A program made the translations under genes and the position numbers. Under the pieces are notes generated by a model. The model was not told where the DNA came from. It saw only the letters and a list, made by a program, of their open reading frames with translations, and ran no database searches. From Dehalococcoidia bacterium (GTDB lineage Bacteria; Chloroflexota; Dehalococcoidia; Lucifugimonadales; UBA3495), in NCBI GenBank assembly GCA_965203675.1, contig CBDBDE010000002.1, positions 600,990 to 664,989 of the forward strand: a stretch of DNA of 64,000 nt, given 5' to 3'. This document shows, in pieces, positions 15,355 to 24,967 of this stretch (position 1 is the stretch's first letter; the number at the start of each line of letters is the position of its first letter).

Positions 15355-15846
15355 CGTTCCTCCTGTGCTCCTTCCGCCGGAGCGGTCGTCCCTGCGATCT
15401 GAGCCGAGTGTATTGGCCGGGTGGAGGGGCAGTCAAGCGGCCCGCCGTTGCGGTGAAGCCGGAAAAAGGCTAAATGTGTGTCATAAGTGCCATTGGAGCG
15501 ATATTGAGCACGAAAATAGGGGGTTTGATGGCTCGCGGCGTGTCGCCAAGGGTCTTTGTTGTGCCATGGTCGCCGCATAATTGTGTCATTTTGTAGCAAA
15601 TTGTCGCATGAATGTCGCATCCTTCTCTGCAACTTCTGGAAGGGGCGACGGCATGAGGGGATCCGGTTGGAATATCACGTTCTAATGATACGTGGTAAGC
15701 CGGGAACTGGTAAGGGGCCGAGTGTCAGCCGCCGCCCTTGCACCCGACAACCCGGTGACAATTCCCGCCCGCCAATTGGGAAATTCGGCAGGCGGATAAT
15801 ATACTGTCACCAGCTTCCCTTGACTAAACCCAGCGGGGAGGACGAG

Positions 15847-16548
15847 GTGCCCAACGAAAGCGTACTGGTCATCGAGGACGAGGAGAACCTGGTCGAGGCG
15901 TTGCGGTACAACCTGGAGCGGGAGGGTTACCAGGTGGAAGCCTGTCTCGATGGGGCGGAAGGGCTGGACTCGGCCCGCCTTTCCCCTCCCGACCTCATTA
16001 TCCTGGATGTGATGCTGCCCGGTCTGGACGGCTTTGAAATCTGCCGCATCCTCCGCCGCGAGTCCGACGTCCCCATTCTCTTCCTGACCGCCCGGGGTGA
16101 GGAGATAGACAAGGTGGTGGGGTTGGAACTGGGAGCCGACGACTACGTCACCAAGCCCTTCAGCGTCCGCGAGGTGGTGGCCCGGGTCAAGGGAATGCTT
16201 CGCCGGTCCCGGGCCGCCGCCAGGGAGGGCGCCGCCGAGCCGGCCCGCCGCGTAATCCGGGCCGGCGACCTGGAGCTGGACTTGGACGGCCATTCCGCCA
16301 CTCTTCAGGGTGAGCCCTTGGGCCTGAAGCCGAGGGAGTTCGACCTGCTGGCCATGCTTGCCTCCAACCGGGGCCGCGCTCTCACCCGCGACCAGATGCT
16401 GGAACAAGTCTGGGGCCACGACTACTATGGCGACACCCGCACCGTGGATGTCCACATCCGCTGGCTTCGGGAAAAGATCCAGCATTACCCCCAGGCCCCC
16501 CAGCGCATCATCACCATTCGGGGAGTGGGCTACCGCTTCGAGGCCTAG
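15847..16548 (+). CDS. OmpR/PhoB-family response regulator
   Basis: 'VLVIEDEENLVEALRYNLEREGYQVE...DLIILDVMLPGLDGFEICRILR...DDYVTKPFSVREVVARV' receiver domain plus winged-helix domain ('TRTVDVHIRWLREKI...IITIRGVGYRF'). GTG start 15847 after GGGGAGGA. The longer track ORF is an upstream extension. Confidence 0.9.
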   Translation: MPNESVLVIEDEENLVEALRYNLEREGYQVEACLDGAEGLDSARLSPPDLIILDVMLPGLDGFEICRILRRESDVPILFLTARGEEIDKVVGLELGADDYVTKPFSVREVVARVKGMLRRSRAAAREGAAEPARRVIRAGDLELDLDGHSATLQGEPLGLKPREFDLLAMLASNRGRALTRDQMLEQVWGHDYYGDTRTVDVHIRWLREKIQHYPQAPQRIITIRGVGYRFEA

Positions 16549-16584: not shown

Positions 16585-17856
16585 GTGGAAATCCTCGGCT
16601 TCGCTGCGGGCGTCATCGGATTGGCCCTCGCTGCCCTCGTCTTCCTCGTCTGTCGCGGCGCAGTCAGGGAACGCCGCTCCAACCGGGCCGTCCTGGAGGC
16701 TTCCCGGCGCTTGTCCCGGGGCGAACTCGACTTTCGGATACTCGGCCAATGGGACGGACCGGCGGGCCAACTCCCTGAAGCCTTCAACACCATGGCCCAG
16801 CGGCTGGAAGACGCCCACCGGGCCCTTTCTGCCGAGCGGGACAAGCTGTCCCGGGTGGTGGCCTCCATGGCCGAGGGGGTGGTGGTCATTGACGCGGCCG
16901 GGCGGATCGTCATCTCGAACCCGGCGGCATCGGCCGCTCTTGGATTGCGGCCCGGCCAGCTTCTTGGGCGGGACTTCTCCGAAGCGGTCCCTGAACACCG
17001 CCTGCAGGAGATCGTTGCTCACTGTGCGGCCGGCGGTGAGGTACAGGCCGCCCGAATCGAACTTCAGCGGCCCCGCAAAGCGCTGAACGTAGCGGCCATA
17101 CCCCTGTCCGAACCCCCGTCCGCTGATATCCTTCTCACCATCCACGACTCTACGGAGGTGGTGCAAGCCGAGACCAGCCGGCGGGAATTCGTCAGCAACG
17201 TCTCTCACGAACTCCGCAATCCCCTGGCCGCCATCCGGGCGATGGTCGAAACCCTGGAAACCGGCGAGGTGGACGACCGGGAGGTCGTGCGAAACTTCCT
17301 GGAGCGCATCAGCCGGGACGTGGACCGGATGTCCACCCTGGTGGACGACCTGTTGGAACTCTCCCGTCTGGAGAGCGGTCAGATCCCCCTCCAGTTGGCG
17401 GAAGTATCCCCGGCCACCCTGCTGCGGGACGCATCGGCCCGGTTTGAACCGCTGGCCAGGGAACGGGACATTACCCTGACCCTCGCTCCTCCTCCGCCCC
17501 TGCCCTCCCTGAACGCCGACCCGGACCGGCTAAATCAGGTGCTGATCAACCTGTTGGAAAACGCCCTGCGGTTCACCCCGCCCGGCGGCCGCATCACCCT
17601 GTCAGTGTCAGAAGCCGATAACTTGGTGGAATTCCGGGTCGAGGACAGCGGGGTTGGCATCGCCCGCGAACACCTGCCCCACCTCTTTGAACGGTTCTAC
17701 AAGGTGGACCGCTCCCGCCGGGACACCGGCACCGGGCTGGGACTGGCCATCGTGCGCCAGATCGTCGAGGCCCACGATGGCGCCGTGTCCGTCACCAGCG
17801 ATGAGGGCGTCGGCAGCGTGTTCTCCTTCGTTCTTCCGTCAGCCCGGCTTCCCTGA
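16585..17856 (+). CDS. PhoR-like sensor histidine kinase
   Basis: N-terminal TM, HAMP/PAS-like region, H-box 'FVSNVSHELRNPL', and HATPase_c N/G boxes ('LINLLENALRFTP', 'DSGVGI', 'GTGLGLAIV'). Adjacent to the response regulator and the pst operon. Confidence 0.85.
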   Translation: MEILGFAAGVIGLALAALVFLVCRGAVRERRSNRAVLEASRRLSRGELDFRILGQWDGPAGQLPEAFNTMAQRLEDAHRALSAERDKLSRVVASMAEGVVVIDAAGRIVISNPAASAALGLRPGQLLGRDFSEAVPEHRLQEIVAHCAAGGEVQAARIELQRPRKALNVAAIPLSEPPSADILLTIHDSTEVVQAETSRREFVSNVSHELRNPLAAIRAMVETLETGEVDDREVVRNFLERISRDVDRMSTLVDDLLELSRLESGQIPLQLAEVSPATLLRDASARFEPLARERDITLTLAPPPPLPSLNADPDRLNQVLINLLENALRFTPPGGRITLSVSEADNLVEFRVEDSGVGIAREHLPHLFERFYKVDRSRRDTGTGLGLAIVRQIVEAHDGAVSVTSDEGVGSVFSFVLPSARLP

Positions 17857-18069: not shown

Positions 18070-20271
18070 ATGAGTGTCCCCGGAGGGAATACCAACCCAC
18101 AGAGGAAACAGCAGCGTCGGCTGCTCATGTTTTCCATACCAACGGCCCTCGTCGCCATTACCCTGGTGATCGTCCTCATTGCCTGCGGCCCGTCCGCCGG
18201 GTCCAATGAACCGGCCGGAGCCACGGACTCAGGTTCTGCGCCTGCCGCCAGTTCCGCGTCTGAGACCTCGTCTTCTGCGGGAATGTCTTCTTCCAGCGGC
18301 GGTTCCTCCTCGATGGCGGCCGGTTCCAGCGGCGGCGCCACCGCCCCCAAGCCCGCTCCGGTTGAGGCCCCCAGCCCCAGCCTCAGCGGCGACATCGCTA
18401 TCGACGGCTCCAGCACCGTCTTCCCCATCACCGAGGCGGTGGCCGAGGAGTTCGGCAACCTGACCGGCGGCAACGTCCGGGTCACGGTGGGCGTCTCGGG
18501 CACCGGCGGCGGCTTCAAGAAGTTCTGCAACTCCGAAACGGTAGTCTCCGACGCCTCCCGCCCGGTCAAGGCCAAGGAAGTCACAATGTGCGGCGACGCC
18601 GGAATCGAGTTCATCGAGCTTCCGGTGGCCATCGACGGGCTGACCGTCATGGTCAACCCCGGCAACGACTTCGTCAGCTGCGTCACCGTCGACGAGCTTC
18701 ATACCGTCTGGGCCCCGGAGGCCGAGGGCGTGGTCACCAACTGGAACCAGGTGCGGGACAGCTTCCCTGACATGGAGCTGGACCTGTACGCTCCCGGAAC
18801 TGCCTCCGGCACCTTCGACTACTTCACCGAGACGGTGAACGACGAAGCGCAGGCCTCCCGGGCGGACATGACCTCCTCCGAGGACGACAACGTCCTGGTG
18901 CAGGGCATCGCCGGCAACAAGGGGAGCATGGGCTACTTCGGATATGCCTACTACGCAGAGAACACCGGCAAGCTCAAGGCCCTGGGCATCGACGGGGGCA
19001 GCGGCTGTGTGGTTCCCACCGACGAGACCATCAACAACGGGAGCTACGCGCCCCTGTCGAGGCCGCTGTTCATCTACGTGCGGAGCGACGTGGCGCAGGA
19101 GCCGCACATCAAGAGCTTCATCGAGTACTACCTGAGCCCGGAGGGGCGGCAGTTGGTGTCCGAAGTTGGGTACATACCCTACCCGGACGAGGTGTACGAC
19201 CTGGCCCTGGTGCGCTTCCAGCAGGGCATCACCGGCACCCTGTTCGGCGGTGAGAACCCACAGAAGGGTCCCGTGGCCGACGTTCTGGCCGGCCGTACCA
19301 CCGCCATGATGGACAAGCCCGCCGGAGAGGCCATGATGATGGACTACTCCAGTCTGAAGGGCGACATCGCTATCGACGGCTCCAGCACCGTCTTCCCCAT
19401 CACCGAGGCCGTGGCCGAGGAGTTCGGCAACCTGACCGGCGGCAACGTCCGGGTCACCGTCGGCGTCTCCGGCACCGGCGGAGGTTTCAAGAAGTTCTGC
19501 AACTCCGAGACGGTTGTCTCCGACGCCTCCCGCCCGGTCAAGGCCAAGGAGGTCGCCATGTGCGGCGACGCCGGCATCGAGTTCATCGAGCTTCCGGTGG
19601 CCATCGACGGACTGACCGTCATGGTCAACCCTGACAACGACTTCGTGAGCTGTGTCACCGTCGACGAGCTTCACACCGTCTGGGCCCCCGAGGCCGAGGG
19701 CGTGGTCACCAACTGGAACCAGGTGCGGGACAGCTTCCCCGACATGGAGCTGGACCTGTACGCTCCCGGAACTGCCTCCGGCACCTTCGACTACTTCACC
19801 GAGACCGTGAACGACGAAGCGCAGGCCTCCCGGGCGGACATGACCTCCTCCGAGGACGACAACGTCCTGGTGCAGGGCATCGCCGGCAACAAGGGGAGCA
19901 TGGGCTACTTCGGATATGCCTACTACGCAGAGAACACCGGCAAGCTCAAGGCCCTGGGCATCGACGGGGGCAGCGGCTGTGTGGTTCCCACCGACGAGAC
20001 CATCAACAACGGGAGCTACGCGCCCCTGTCGAGGCCGCTGTTCATCTACGTGCGGAGCGACGTGGCGCAGGAGCCGCACATCAAGAGCTTCATCGAGTAC
20101 TACCTGAGCCCGGAGGGGCGGCAGTTGGTGTCCGAAGTCGGGTACATACCCTACCCGGACGAGGTGTACGACCTGGCCCTGGTCCGCTTCCAGCAGGGCA
20201 TCACCGGCACCCTGTTCGGCGGTGAGAACCCTCAGAAGGGTCCCGTGGCCGACGTTCTGGCCGGCGGCTAA
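18070..20271 (+). CDS. pstS: Phosphate ABC transporter substrate-binding lipoprotein, tandem double PstS domain
   Basis: AGGAGG RBS. Signal/lipobox '[10 protein letters not shown]', then a low-complexity S/A/G linker, then two complete PstS-like domains ('[23 protein letters not shown]...[12 protein letters not shown]...RPLFIYV') in one 733-aa ORF. Confidence 0.85.
18388..19293 (+). repeat. PstS-domain repeat copy 1 (906 nt)
   Basis: Aligns without gaps to 19360-20265 at an offset of exactly 972 nt (324 codons). By eye there are roughly two dozen mismatches, most in the first ~385 nt. Confidence 0.95.
19360..20265 (+). repeat. PstS-domain repeat copy 2 (906 nt)
   Basis: See copy 1. Only two amino-acid differences were noted (T/A in 'KEV[T/A]MCG', G/D in 'NP[G/D]NDF'). 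Confidence 0.95.
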
Positions 20272-20287
20272 ATCACTGCTTGCTAGT

Positions 20288-20345
20288 ATGCCGGGAGGCG
20301 GCACCGGAGCGTCGGAGCTCCCGCTTGATGCCCGCCTCCCGGCAT
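20288..20345 (+). promoter_or_regulatory. Intercistronic stem-loop between pstS and pstC
   Basis: Perfect 14-bp stem, 'atgccgggaggcgg' (20288-20301) with 'ccgcctcccggcat' (20332-20345), enclosing a 30-nt loop. No U-tract follows. Confidence 0.6.
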
Positions 20346-20415
20346 CCCATCCCCCGGGTTGTGCGATAATCCGTCCATGCCAACTCCAAGGCCCGGGAAT
20401 ACTCGAGGAAACGAA

Positions 20416-21375
20416 ATGAGAGTTGACACTGCGGGACGAGCGGAGGATGCCGCCGGCATCAGCCGGATGCTCGATGCCCGGAGCGGCCATCGCTGGCGAC
20501 AGCGGCTCATAGAGAGCGCCATCAAGACGGGCCTCTTTTTCTGCGCCATCCTGTCCATCTTCACCACCGTTGGTATCGTTTCGGTCCTGCTCTTTGAGGC
20601 GATCCTCTTCTTCCAGGAAGTATCCATCCTTGAGTTCCTGGGAAGCACCCGTTGGACCCCGCTGTTTGCATCCAAGCAGTTCGGAATCTGGGCCCTGGTG
20701 TCGGCCACGCTGCTGACCTCCATAGGAGCCATGTTCATCGCCCTTCCCCTGGGACTGCTCAGCGCCATCTATCTTGCCGAGTATGCTCCTGACCAGGTCC
20801 GGAAGGTCGTCAAGCCGGTCCTGGAGGTGCTGGCCGGCATCCCCACCGTGGTCTACGGTTACTTCGCCCTCCTGTTCGTTACCCCCATCCTGCGGGCCAT
20901 CTCGGACGACATTTCCATCTTCAACGGCCTCAGCGCCTCCATCGTCATGGGCATCATGATTCTACCCATGGTCTCCAGCCTCAGCGAGGATGCAATGCAG
21001 GCGGTCCCTCGTTCCCTGCGGGAAGGGGCCTACGCCCTGGGAGCCACCAAGTTGGAGGTTGCCACCAAGGTTGTGGTCCCGGCCGCCCTCTCCGGCATCG
21101 TCGCCGCCTTCATTCTTTCCATGTCCCGGGCCATCGGCGAAACGATGATCGTGACCATCGCCGCCGGACAGAACCCCAAATTCACCTTCAATCCCTTCGT
21201 CCCCATCGAGACCATGACCGCCTACATCGTGCAGGTCAGCATGGGAGACGCTCCCACCGGCAGCCTGGAGTTCAAGACCATCTTCGCGGTGGGATTGAGC
21301 CTCTTTGTCATAACCCTGGCAATGAACCTGTTGAGCCAGTACTTCGTCCGCAGGTTCCGGGAGGAGTACGAATGA
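20416..21375 (+). CDS. pstC: Phosphate ABC transporter permease PstC
   Basis: Multi-TM protein with the ABC permease EAA-type loop ('[25 protein letters not shown]') and operon position after pstS. Start set at ATG 20416 (GAGGAAA RBS). Confidence 0.85.
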
Positions 21376-21463
21376 TTTCTTGCCTGATCTCCCGCCGCCT
21401 TCGCTCCCGGCGTGGGCAACTTGTCTTTGGGCAGCTTGTTTAAGGAAGCTGGAGGCTCGACTA

Positions 21464-22348
21464 ATGGCCATAATCACCCAGGCCGAGTTTCAGAGGCGCA
21501 AGCGTTCCCGGCAGGTCAAGGGGCAGATTTTCTACGTCCTCTGCCTGCTCTCAATTCTAATCGGCGTCGGGATGCTGGCCGCCCTGCTGTACAACATAAT
21601 TTCCGACGGGATAACCCGGGTCAACTGGGACTTCCTCAACAGCTTCCCCTCCCGCCACGCCGATCAGGCCGGCATCAAGGCCGCCCTGCTGGGCAGCATC
21701 TACGTCGTGGGCCTGGCCGGAGTGTTGGCCTTCACCCTGGGGGTCGGAGCTGCCATCTATCTTGAGGAATACGCGGCCCGCAGTTGGTTCGCCCGGATCA
21801 TCCAGGTGAACATCGCCAACCTGGCCGGCGTCCCGTCCATTGTCTACGGCATCCTGGGGCTGGAAATATTCGTCCGCATCATGATGATGGGCAAGAGCGT
21901 CCTGGCTGGAGGCCTCACCCTGGCCCTGCTGGTTCTGCCCATAGTGATCATCGCCGCCCAGGAAGCCATCCGCGCCGTTCCTCCGTCCCTCCGGGAGGGA
22001 GGCTTCGCCCTTGGGGCCACCCGGTGGCAGGTGATCCGCACCCTGGTGCTGCCCTACGCCTTCCCCGGGATCCTTACCGGAGTCATCCTTGCCGTCAGCC
22101 GGGCTGTGGGCGAGACGGCTCCTCTCATCGTAATGGGAGCCTTGACCTTCGTTCCCTTCGCTCCCGACGGCCCGTTGAGCCCCTTCACCGTCCTTCCCAT
22201 CCAGATTTTCAACTGGGTTTCCCGGCCCCAGGAAGACTTCCACACCGCCGCCGCCGCGGGAATCATCGTCCTGCTGGTGGTCCTGCTGACCATGAACGCA
22301 TTGGCGGTATTCCTGCGCAACAAGTTCCAGAAGCGGTCCGAGATCTAA
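21464..22348 (+). CDS. pstA: Phosphate ABC transporter permease PstA
   Basis: 'QEAIRAVPPSLREGGFALGATRWQVI' permease loop and operon position. Start at ATG 21464 with GGAGG RBS. Confidence 0.85.
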   Translation: MAIITQAEFQRRKRSRQVKGQIFYVLCLLSILIGVGMLAALLYNIISDGITRVNWDFLNSFPSRHADQAGIKAALLGSIYVVGLAGVLAFTLGVGAAIYLEEYAARSWFARIIQVNIANLAGVPSIVYGILGLEIFVRIMMMGKSVLAGGLTLALLVLPIVIIAAQEAIRAVPPSLREGGFALGATRWQVIRTLVLPYAFPGILTGVILAVSRAVGETAPLIVMGALTFVPFAPDGPLSPFTVLPIQIFNWVSRPQEDFHTAAAAGIIVLLVVLLTMNALAVFLRNKFQKRSEI

Positions 22349-22379: not shown

Positions 22380-23159
22380 ATGATTCAAGCAGCCACCGAC
22401 CTGATCATCGAAGCCAGCGGCGTTTCCGTCTATTACGCCGAGAAGCCGGCGGTCAGGGACATCAACCTGAATATCGAGCGCAACAGGATAACCGCCCTCA
22501 TCGGCCCATCCGGGTGCGGCAAGACCACCCTGCTGCGGTCCTTCAACCGCATGAACGACTTGGTCCCCATCGCCCGCACCGAGGGCCGGATTCTATTCGA
22601 GGGCGAGGACCTCTACTCGCCCTTCGTCGACCCTACCGAAATCCGGTACAAGATTGGCATGGTGTTCCAGCGCCCCAACCCCTTCCCCAAGAGCATCTAC
22701 GACAACATTGCCTTCGGGCCCCGCATCAACGGGTTCCGGGGCAACATGGACGAGCTGGTGGAACGCTCGCTGCGGGGAGCCGCCCTGTGGGACGAGGTCA
22801 AGGACCGCCTCCGTGCCAGCGGCCTGTCTCTGTCCGGCGGTCAGCAGCAGCGGCTGTGCATCGCCCGCACCCTGGCGGTGGAACCCACCGTCATCCTGAT
22901 GGACGAACCCTGCTCGGCCCTGGACCCCATCGCCACCCTGGCCATCGAGGACCTGATGCGGGAGTTGTCCCAGCAATACTCCATCATCATCGTCACCCAC
23001 AACATGCAGCAGGCGGCCCGCGTGTCCGACTACACCGCCTTCATAACTGCCGACGAGAGGCGCATCGGAGAGCTGGTGGAGTACGGGGAGACCGGGCAGA
23101 TTTTCACCAATCCCAGGGATGAACGCACCGAGGCGTACATAACGGGAAGATTCGGATAA
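22380..23159 (+). CDS. pstB: Phosphate ABC transporter ATP-binding protein PstB
   Basis: 'GPSGCGKTT' Walker A, '[16 protein letters not shown]' signature, '[12 protein letters not shown]' Walker B. PstB-typical '[19 protein letters not shown]'. Confidence 0.9.
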
Positions 23160-23494: not shown

Positions 23495-24187
23495 ATGATT
23501 AGGGCAGATTTCAACCGCAGCCTGAAGCGACTGGAAAGCGAACTGATTGTCCTGGGCAAGCTGGTTGAGGGAGCGGTGGAAAAGTCCGTTATCTCCCTTA
23601 AGGACAGGGACCTGGAGACATCCAAGGTCGTCATCGCTGAGGACGACATAATCGACCTGAAGCGCTTCGAGCTGGAGGACCAGTGCGTCCATCTCGTGGC
23701 TACCCAGCAGCCTCTGGCCACCGACCTGCGTACCATAATCACCGTCCTCCACGTTTCCGTGGAGCTTGAGCGCATCGGCGACTACGCTGAGGGCATCGCC
23801 AAAATCAGCCTGATGATGGGCAACGAGCCTCCCCTCAAGCCCCTGATCGACATCCCCCGCATGGCCAACTGTTCCATCGATATGATGCACCGGGGCATGG
23901 ACGCGCTGATCCGTGCCATCGACGCCGAAGAAGATGTGGAGTCTATCAAGCAGGACGCCTTGAAGGTCTGCGACGACGATGACGAGGTGGACAGCCTCTA
24001 TGACCAGGTCTACCGGGAACTCTTGCTCTTCATGATGCAGGACCCCCAGGCCATCCAGCGGGCCACCTACCTGCTGTGGGTAGCCCACAACCTGGAGCGC
24101 ATCGCCGACCGGGCTACCAACATCGCGGAACGGGTCATATATCTCGTTACCGGCAGCCTTTCCAAGGTCAATGCCTCTAGGTACTAG
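23495..24187 (+). CDS. phoU: Phosphate signalling complex protein PhoU
   Basis: 230 aa with two PhoU repeats carrying the conserved 'ERIGDYAEGIAK' and 'LERIADRATNIAE' motifs. GAGGAG RBS. Confidence 0.9.
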   Translation: MIRADFNRSLKRLESELIVLGKLVEGAVEKSVISLKDRDLETSKVVIAEDDIIDLKRFELEDQCVHLVATQQPLATDLRTIITVLHVSVELERIGDYAEGIAKISLMMGNEPPLKPLIDIPRMANCSIDMMHRGMDALIRAIDAEEDVESIKQDALKVCDDDDEVDSLYDQVYRELLLFMMQDPQAIQRATYLLWVAHNLERIADRATNIAERVIYLVTGSLSKVNASRY

Positions 24188-24238
24188 CCCCGGTACCGGG
24201 ACTTCCCTTCCTGCTCGGCTTCCTGACGCACCTTGACC

Positions 24239-24967
24239 ATGCTCAGACGCTGCCTCGCCGAATTCGTCGCCACCTTCGGCCTCGTCTTCGTCTCCGCCGG
24301 CGTCGTGATGGCCGACGCCCTCTCTGTAGGCGCCGTCGGACACCTGGCCATTAGCCTGGCCCCCGGATTGATGGTCGCCGCCATGATCTACGCCACCGGG
24401 CACATCTGCGGGGCCCACATGAATCCCGCCATCACCCTTGCCTTTGCCCTGTCCGACCGCTTCCCCTGGCGTGACGTCCCCGTCTACTGGGCCGTGCAGT
24501 TTGCCGCCGGAATCGCCGCCGGCCTGGCCCTGCGGGGAATCATGGGGGACGTGGGAGGAATGGGAGCGACGCTGCCGTCCGTCGACGTTTTCCGCGGTGC
24601 GGCGGTGGAATTTGGGTTGACCTTCTTCCTCGCCCTGGTGGTCATGGCCGTCGCCACCGACAGTCGGGCCGAGGGCCCCGGCGCCGCCTTCGCCATTGGA
24701 GGCATCGTCGCCCTGGAGATTATGGTCGCCGGACCGGTTTCCGGAGCTTCCATGAACCCGGCCCGCTCCCTCGGCCCTGCCCTGGCCGCCCTCAACTGGG
24801 AAGCCCACTGGATCTACTGGGTGGGCCCCACCGCCGGGGCTGCCGCTGCGGCCCTCTTCTACCGCTTCGTCCGCCAACCTGAGCCCCGCAGCGAAACGGT
24901 TGCACCCCAGCCTGCTCCTGGACCCTCGGGCGCACCCACACCCGATCCAGTCCCCGGCGAGGACTAG
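24239..24967 (+). CDS. MIP/aquaporin family channel
   Basis: Two NPA boxes ('GAHMNPAITLAF', 'GASMNPARSLGPA') in a 6-TM protein. ATG 24239 was preferred over the TTG at 24233. Confidence 0.85.
   Translation: MLRRCLAEFVATFGLVFVSAGVVMADALSVGAVGHLAISLAPGLMVAAMIYATGHICGAHMNPAITLAFALSDRFPWRDVPVYWAVQFAAGIAAGLALRGIMGDVGGMGATLPSVDVFRGAAVEFGLTFFLALVVMAVATDSRAEGPGAAFAIGGIVALEIMVAGPVSGASMNPARSLGPALAALNWEAHWIYWVGPTAGAAAAALFYRFVRQPEPRSETVAPQPAPGPSGAPTPDPVPGED

Follow-up and report, generated by a model that had tools for sequence, protein, structure and literature searches.

In textbooks, the receptor of the main high-affinity phosphate importer of bacteria is PstS, a protein with a single domain; in Chloroflexota, one would expect receptors of this kind to be tethered to the membrane of the cell, not free in a periplasm. 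To our knowledge, the PstS proteins described so far are single-domain, and all Protein Data Bank (PDB) matches of the Foldseek search reported below are single-domain for PstS. The gene analyzed here, pstS-pstS, has another design. It is a single open reading frame (ORF) in a 64,000-nt stretch of DNA (the window, G000:C2:600990-664989) from an uncultured Dehalococcoidia bacterium whose genome, G000, comprises 4.39 Mb in 3 contigs, and it is quite likely to be a real in-frame tandem fusion of whole PstS domains, with the two copies kept alike by recombination between them. No paper on tandem, fused, or duplicated PstS was found among the open-access papers searched, and nothing relevant came up there for PstS of Chloroflexi or of sponges.

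The best experimental model for a tandem receptor is GlnPQ of Lactococcus lactis, in which the domains SBD1 and SBD2 lie in tandem in GlnP with a linker of 14 aa, bind ligand independently, and compete for docking (PDB 6H30; PMC8025302, Ploetz et al. 2021). Like GlnP, the pstS-pstS product has two type-II binding domains on a short flexible linker, and a fold search over both of its domains retrieved 6H30 at rank 40, with 9% identity, a likeness of fold class only. However, the GlnPQ tandem is fused to the membrane subunit, whereas the pstS-pstS product is a separate lipoprotein, and the GlnPQ domains are unlike in specificity and affinity, whereas those of pstS-pstS differ at just 2 of 302 residues. 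Because it is unfused to a permease and its domains are nearly identical, pstS-pstS lies outside the GlnPQ group. A second point of comparison is bacterial coding DNA whose repeats evolve in concert, through gene conversion or unequal recombination, as in the duplicated tuf genes of enterobacteria. As in that case, the pstS-pstS copies are more alike within than between genomes, identity blocks form a mosaic, and the repeat ends escape homogenization. The difference is that the repeats here are the halves of one gene, where collapse or expansion alters the number of domains rather than the number of genes.

Relative to single-domain PstS, the source protein differs in having two complete domains on one polypeptide, joined by a disordered linker of 22 aa. 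Its parts are as follows.

18070 to 20271, plus strand: pstS-pstS, a single 733-aa ORF for a two-domain phosphate-binding lipoprotein (translation, profile matches)
18070 to 18186, plus strand: signal peptide and lipobox LIAC (residues 36-39), with Cys39 (18184-18186) as the predicted lipidation site (sequence)
18187 to 18387, plus strand: Ser/Gly/Ala-rich flexible tether, residues 40-106 (composition; predicted local distance difference test score, pLDDT, <50 at residues 38-90)
18388 to 19293, plus strand: PstS domain 1 (d1), residues 107-408 (profile, alignment, AlphaFold2, Foldseek)
18835 to 19166, plus strand: identity block of 332 nt, the d1 stretch identical to 19807-20138 of d2 and the core of the homogenized stretch
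19294 to 19359, plus strand: Met-rich linker of 22 aa (66 nt), disordered (pLDDT <50 at residues 411-423)
19360 to 20265, plus strand: PstS domain 2 (d2), residues 431-732 (profile, alignment, AlphaFold2)

An initial annotation had described this ORF as a lipoprotein with two complete phosphate-binding domains, and the profiles bear this out: PF12849 matches twice (251 bits against a cut-off of 27), and TIGR02136 matches in two stretches (580.2 bits against 206.6). Each half thus shares its profile with PstS of the TIGR02136 ('ptsS_2', SphX-like) branch of the PstSCAB importer, and it shares the fold and invariant motifs of that branch as well. The AlphaFold2 (AF2) model, built on a 45-sequence alignment, contains two domains that are predicted with confidence, residues 107-408 and 431-732 (pLDDT 80-97), and its predicted template-modeling score of 0.47 means that the arrangement of the domains and the contacts between them are undefined by the model. 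The top structural match in Foldseek, which is also the closest solved structure, is 4JWO from Planctomyces limnophilus, with which each half aligns at 51% identity (template-modeling score 0.88, E = 1e-89); the PstS structures 9JWY, 4GD5, 4N13, 1TWY, and others follow. At the N terminus, LIAC agrees with the lipobox pattern [LVI][ASTVI][GAS]C and comes after a hydrophobic helix (residues 23-36 in AF2), and C39 is nearly invariant among the homologues in alignment A1; the motif therefore predicts lipidation at Cys39.

Both halves also retain the residues that define the family. Across 45 two-domain homologues, the invariant residues of d1 are mirrored one for one in d2, with the columns D-G-S-S-T, S-G-T-G-G-G, A-S-R-P, S-G-T-x-D-Y-F, and D-D-N invariant in both halves, and the corresponding motifs of d1 and d2 (DGSST, SGTGGG, ASRP, SGTFDYF, and DDN) are conserved in 4JWO as well. 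Some of these motifs presumably contact phosphate, an assumption that we carry over from work on Escherichia coli PstS. Because both domains keep the invariant residues of the family, each would be expected to bind phosphate. The same alignment of 45 homologues shows cysteine pairs, C153/C174 and C204/C313 in d1, mirrored by C477/C498 and C528/C637 in d2, that are invariant or nearly so; the pairs may give each extracytoplasmic domain two disulfide bonds. Met-rich linkers between PstS domains are also found in many lineages (19294-19359 here; L005, L006, and L103-L115; proteins P0003-P0119). Examples include MMDKP...MMMDY in the source gene, GEAMMDKPMVDY, and ISMGLMESSSMAMM, as well as GDMMMDMGMF in proteins that are only ~40% identical, and many N-terminal tethers end Met-rich in the same way. 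The Met-rich segment may pack on a domain or may have a role of its own.

At the DNA level, the copies, each of 906 nt (18388-19293 and 19360-20265), can be aligned gap-free at an offset of 972 nt, or 324 codons, which bears out the initial annotation base for base; their identity is 97.35%. A repeat search recovers the same direct repeat with 972-nt spacing, and sliding identity at this offset is near 100% over 18388-19293 and at background level outside it. The copies d1 and d2 differ at 24 bases, spread over 23 codons. Of the 24 mismatches, 21 are single synonymous third-position changes, and the remaining 3 fall in two codons, 172 ACA/GCC (T/A) and 198 GGC/GAC (G/D), leaving the two domains 99.3% identical as proteins. 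Both amino acid differences lie outside the conserved motifs. The ratio of nonsynonymous to synonymous divergence (dN/dS) between d1 and d2 is 0.027, which, together with the mirrored invariant residues and the values of 0.03-0.23 found across the family (see below), agrees with the earlier proposal that both domains are under purifying selection.

The mismatches are not randomly placed. Twenty of the 24 lie in 18438-18768, within the first 381 nt, one is at 18834, there are none in 18835-19166 (332 nt), and the last three are at 19167, 19212, and 19260. The homogenized stretch begins at ~18770, continues as far as the domain does, and contains 4 differences. These counts match those made by eye in the initial annotation, which had about 20 of two dozen mismatches early, nearly all synonymous, with 2 amino acid changes; its single mismatch in the next ~400 nt is one or two, depending on the edge chosen. 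With 23 differing codons placed uniformly among 302, the longest identical run (110 codons) has P = 4e-4, and random placement gives P = 6e-5 for finding 19 of the 23 within the first 130 codons. The initial annotation had also proposed a test of the GENECONV type, and a Sawyer-type permutation on 158 polymorphic sites among 19 close domain sequences gives P = 7e-4. Expressed as synonymous divergence (dS), d1 and d2 differ by 0.223 in codons 1-130 and by 0.033 in codons 131-302.

A low mutation rate or strong constraint in the 3' part was considered as a source of this pattern and rejected, because between-strain dS lies at 0.23-0.30 in both segments. Orthologous comparisons with G005, G006, P0128, and P0129 likewise give 24-43 differences in positions 391-906. 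Consequently, the 3' part is not intrinsically invariant, since strains differ there as much as they do in the 5' part.

Comparison among strains points to copying within the gene. In the 3' two-thirds, the G000 copies are 0.8% apart, yet they are ~4.5% or more from every other sequence, which implies that this block was copied within the G000 lineage after it diverged. In positions 41-300, d2 is nearest to the one-domain relative G006 (5 differences), whereas d1 and d2 differ at 17 positions, and d1 is nearest to copies of other strains (8 differences from P0123_d2 and 9 from P0129). Identical blocks are found elsewhere in the domains of other strains, at 217-569 in P0123, 22-809 in P0125, and 1-371 in P0129. 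In addition, the same two-allele sites occur in d1 of one genome and d2 of another, a pattern that includes the comparison of G000 with P0128, both of which are probably long-read assemblies. The near-identical copies of P0121 and P0126 (1 difference each) were left out as evidence for conversion, because both look like short-read scaffolds, in which a single consensus may be assigned to the copies of a repeat. Taken together, these sequence comparisons support gene conversion, or an equivalent unequal exchange, behind the 3' identity.

The spacer after the pstS stop (20266-20330) is found in two unrelated haplotypes among close strains, as compared with L004, L007, and L095-L102. One is carried by G000, G005, P0125, P0129, P0126, P0121, P0132, and P0085, and the other by G006, P0123, and P0128. 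This split cuts across the domain tree and is thus a sign of inter-strain recombination at the pstS locus.

The junction between the domains predates the identity block. Clustering at 90% identity places the source protein in a group of 12 sequences from separate assemblies. Five of these (P0123, P0125, P0128, P0129, and the fragment P0124), all from other samples, have the same two-domain layout and the same linker ending [KS]. In the four carriers that were fetched, the linker DNA differs from that of G000 by 0-1 base outside the last 9 nt, while their domains differ from those of G000 at 38-60 of 906 nt (4-7%). Being common to strains 4-7% apart, the fusion and its linker are older than that block. 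Furthermore, the linker scores 17 against its own N-terminal tether but 52 and 51 against its best matches, the linkers of genus g12, where the 99th percentile of a shuffled, composition-preserving null is 37. Since the best matches are linkers of another genus rather than its own tether, the junction, and with it the fusion, is probably older than the genus.

At its 3' end, the linker can bear traces of exchange. Its last 9 nt equal the end of the N-terminal tether in P0125, P0128, and P0129, which implies that in those strains a tract crossed the domain boundary. The 75-nt linker of P0126 (L099), RTSAASDEPVSSSGSEVESPSPSLS, resembles a linker of the G000 type at its start and an N-terminal tether at its end, and its codons are AT-rich (AGA, TCT, GGT, GAA), which is unusual in a GC-rich genome. 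It may be a chimera from a conversion tract over the domain boundary or a separate junction.

A wider survey covered 151 species genomes of the family to which the source genome belongs, 142 of which had a PstS match. An intact two-domain ORF was found in 18 of the 151, in 7 genera and always as a minority within the genus; 18 is a lower bound, as several short-read genomes break inside pstS, for example G001, which belongs to the genus of G000. The contigs ending inside pstS are those of G001 (G001:C65 and C70), G130, G132, G142, G144, G090, and G156, as expected if a near-identical tandem repeat breaks the assembly. Most of the two-domain genes of the family are in genomes of 1-10 contigs. 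In all 18, dN/dS between d1 and d2 is 0.03-0.23, with dS running from 0.014 to 1.15, and low dN/dS over so wide a range of dS indicates that both domains have long been under purifying selection.

The survey also indicates that fusions arise repeatedly and that old ones are homogenized from time to time. The linker of G045 reproduces the N-terminal tether of the same gene exactly, and its two domain copies differ by 3 nt; in G126, the linker is the full C-terminal tail followed by a copy of the N-terminal tether; by their sequence, these are fresh, independent duplications. At the other extreme, five species of g37 have one common linker, and their d1 and d2 are 79-91% identical. In this genus, d1 groups with d1 in close species pairs, whereas d1 and d2 group together by sub-lineage across the genus. 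An approximately unbiased (AU) test rejects a tree with all d1 in one clade (log-likelihood difference 124, p = 1.4e-5). As judged from these sequences, g37 has an old fusion with episodic homogenization. One-domain PstS is found in the close relatives G006 (2 contigs) and P0085 (whose contig name is of a long-read type), and the family thus includes one-domain genes in close relatives as well as fresh re-duplications. A one-domain scaffold that is nearly identical to two-domain strains, P0132, was not used as evidence of copy-number polymorphism; for the one-domain state, the evidence is G006 and P0085.

Beyond the family, the best 120 database matches comprise 100 two-domain and 18 three-domain proteins, counts that are not frequencies, since the length filter of the search favors long proteins. 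Copies within a protein are 68-100% identical, and, save for one near relative, these matches are 38-70% identical to the source protein. They include two-domain proteins of Chloroflexus sp. (678-682 aa) that are annotated 'PstS family phosphate ABC transporter substrate-binding protein'. Three-domain PstS of ~945-990 aa, with copies 78-96% identical, is encoded by L015 (a Dehalococcoidia metagenome-assembled genome, CBDCEF010000004.1) and is seen in P0002, P0008, P0009, P0015, P0025, and others. Two same-strand, Chloroflexota-like PstS domains with 55% identity lie ~300 nt apart in L035 (CABHOJ010000063.1, 'uncultured Methylotenera sp.'), a contig binned as a betaproteobacterium; this pair may reflect mis-binning or transfer. 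One distant database homologue is labeled Geodia barretti, a sponge. The other two- and three-domain PstS of Chloroflexota have the same architecture as the source protein; some arose separately, as in G045 and G126, while the source gene has an old, diverged linker. Two- and three-domain PstS is common and recurrent in Chloroflexota, which lowers the surprise of the finding and leaves its correctness unaffected.

Taken together, these results lead to the following model. The tether of ~67 residues and the linker would let each domain reach PstCA, so that each would bind one phosphate and hand it over independently, and there would be two receptors on one anchor. In this model the 906-nt coding repeats recombine with each other, and a conversion tract, or an equivalent unequal exchange, has recently replaced roughly two-thirds of one copy, on its 3' side, by the sequence of the other. 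The 5' third of the copies still holds two different population haplotypes. The same process operates across the family as episodic homogenization of old fusions. The product would be a Pho-regulated lipoprotein with two independent phosphate receptors. Phosphate binding by both domains and independent docking would be expected, a fitness benefit may follow, and the doubled receptor may plausibly be an adaptation to scarce phosphate.

Several points weigh against this model. P0121, P0123, P0125, P0126, P0129, and P0132 look like short-read scaffolds, in which the repeat copies may have been collapsed or mis-phased, so that near-identity there is weak evidence. The phasing of the 24 variants between the G000 copies rests on the assembly alone, and the long-read type of that assembly is deduced from its size and continuity (4.39 Mb in 3 contigs). 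For the AU test, the choice of the d1 sequences as a group was made with the tree already in view. Homology between linker A, of the G000 type, and linkers B and C, of the G005 type, is ambiguous, as only 14 of their first 27 nt agree; their protein starts are similar (R-T-[TS]-A-x-x-D-[KE]-P), and the argument for an old fusion is independent of this homology. Finally, the 5' divergence could be a later import of foreign DNA into d1, since the flanks show inter-strain recombination.

This last point is the basis of an alternative in which the whole domain was duplicated or fully homogenized very recently, making d1 and d2 equal, after which the first ~380 nt of d1 were replaced from another strain. 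The patchy pattern would then stem from import between strains and not from a conversion tract that stopped short within the gene. It accounts for positions 41-300 of d1 being nearest to other strains and not to d2, and the two very different haplotypes of the downstream spacer, off the domain tree, indicate that inter-strain recombination does occur here. However, the fusion and linker are common to strains 4-7% apart, so the duplication itself is not recent, and this alternative would still require intragenic homogenization first, differing from the model above only in the order of events. Moreover, d2 rather than d1 could equally be the imported copy. We consider a recent copy followed by import rather unlikely. 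The initial annotation had attributed the recent homogenization of the 3' part either to gene conversion or to a very recent partial duplication. The former is favored by the difference in dS (0.033 vs 0.223) and by the shared linker. The latter, in which just the 3' two-thirds were duplicated over an older duplicate, would also yield a near-identical 3' part and a divergent 5' part. However, neither copy is truncated, and the junction is an old one. The copies show no additional junction, length change, or gap and stay in register at a single offset throughout their 906 nt. Because a partial duplication adds sequence and a length-neutral replacement is conversion, this version is extremely improbable. 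It is also highly improbable that the gene is an artefact of assembly, either an expanded repeat or a consensus of two co-existing strains with a one-domain gene. The source is indeed a metagenome-assembled genome with an estimated contamination of 5.3%, and its close relative G006 is one-domain. However, such an artefact would not be expected to contain a unique in-frame linker of 66 nt that recurs in five other assemblies from other samples; within the family, two-domain genes are also present in genomes that consist of a single contig, and both reading frames are open and have the low dN/dS given above.

The gene occupies the place of an ordinary PstS. As with PstS of PstSCAB, it comes directly before pstC, pstA, pstB, and phoU and after phoB-phoR. 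The neighboring genes are as follows.

15556 to 16548, plus strand: response regulator gene, PhoB/OmpR-type (translation; the neighbor gene of a relative matches Response_reg and Trans_reg_C)
16585 to 17856, plus strand: sensor histidine kinase gene, PhoR-like, 423 aa (translation; the gene of relatives matches PAS, HisKA, and HATPase_c)
20359 to 21375, plus strand: pstC permease (the neighbor in relatives, 319 aa, matches BPD_transp_1; true start probably later in the ORF)
21380 to 22348, plus strand: pstA permease (the neighbor in relatives, 294 aa, matches BPD_transp_1; true start probably later in the ORF)
22380 to 23159, plus strand: pstB ATPase (translation, with Walker A GPSGCGKT and signature LSGGQQQR)
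23495 to 24187, plus strand: phoU (named by sequence and position alone)

The order phoB-like, phoR-like, pstS-pstS, pstC, pstA, pstB, phoU is the same in relatives. The regulator ORF as listed begins too far upstream, and the receiver and winged-helix domains make up its last ~230 codons. AGGAGG lies 8 nt upstream of the ATG at 18070, and pstC is an ORF separate from pstS-pstS (stop at 20271), with a spacer of ~90-150 nt that contains a hairpin. Directly 3' of phoU on the same strand, a 244-aa gene (24233-24967, plus strand) resembles channels of the MIP/aquaporin family. Across the whole 4.39-Mb genome, PF12849 matches nothing but the two domains of the ORF at 18070-20271, from which it follows that the pstS-pstS product is the only PstS of this genome.

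A further and more tentative idea, possible but doubtful, is that domain number behaves as an accordion, with unequal recombination between the 0.9-kb repeats frequently moving lineages from one form of PstS to another, with one, two, or three domains. If so, it would provide a heritable and reversible control over how many sites for phosphate capture each anchored molecule has, and selection would act on it as the phosphate supply changes. Homogenization would then be a footprint of repeat traffic, and the Met-rich linkers might have their own role.

Tandem duplication and gene conversion are well-known processes, and the finding, although solid, is only moderately surprising. It has a practical side, in that short-read assemblies break at genes of this kind and may phase their copies wrongly, so that domain counts in metagenome-assembled genomes are lower bounds. 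For the organism, it means that its only PstS is a covalent double receptor, a design that Chloroflexota have evolved more than once, in double or triple form, and that purifying selection has maintained there. These genes offer a natural system for asking how the number of receptors per anchor matters in an ATP-binding cassette (ABC) importer, a counterpart to studies of engineered tandems and of GlnPQ. They likewise offer a natural system in which the two halves of one bacterial gene evolve in concert, where conversion tracts can be seen and close strains include one-domain relatives and re-duplications.

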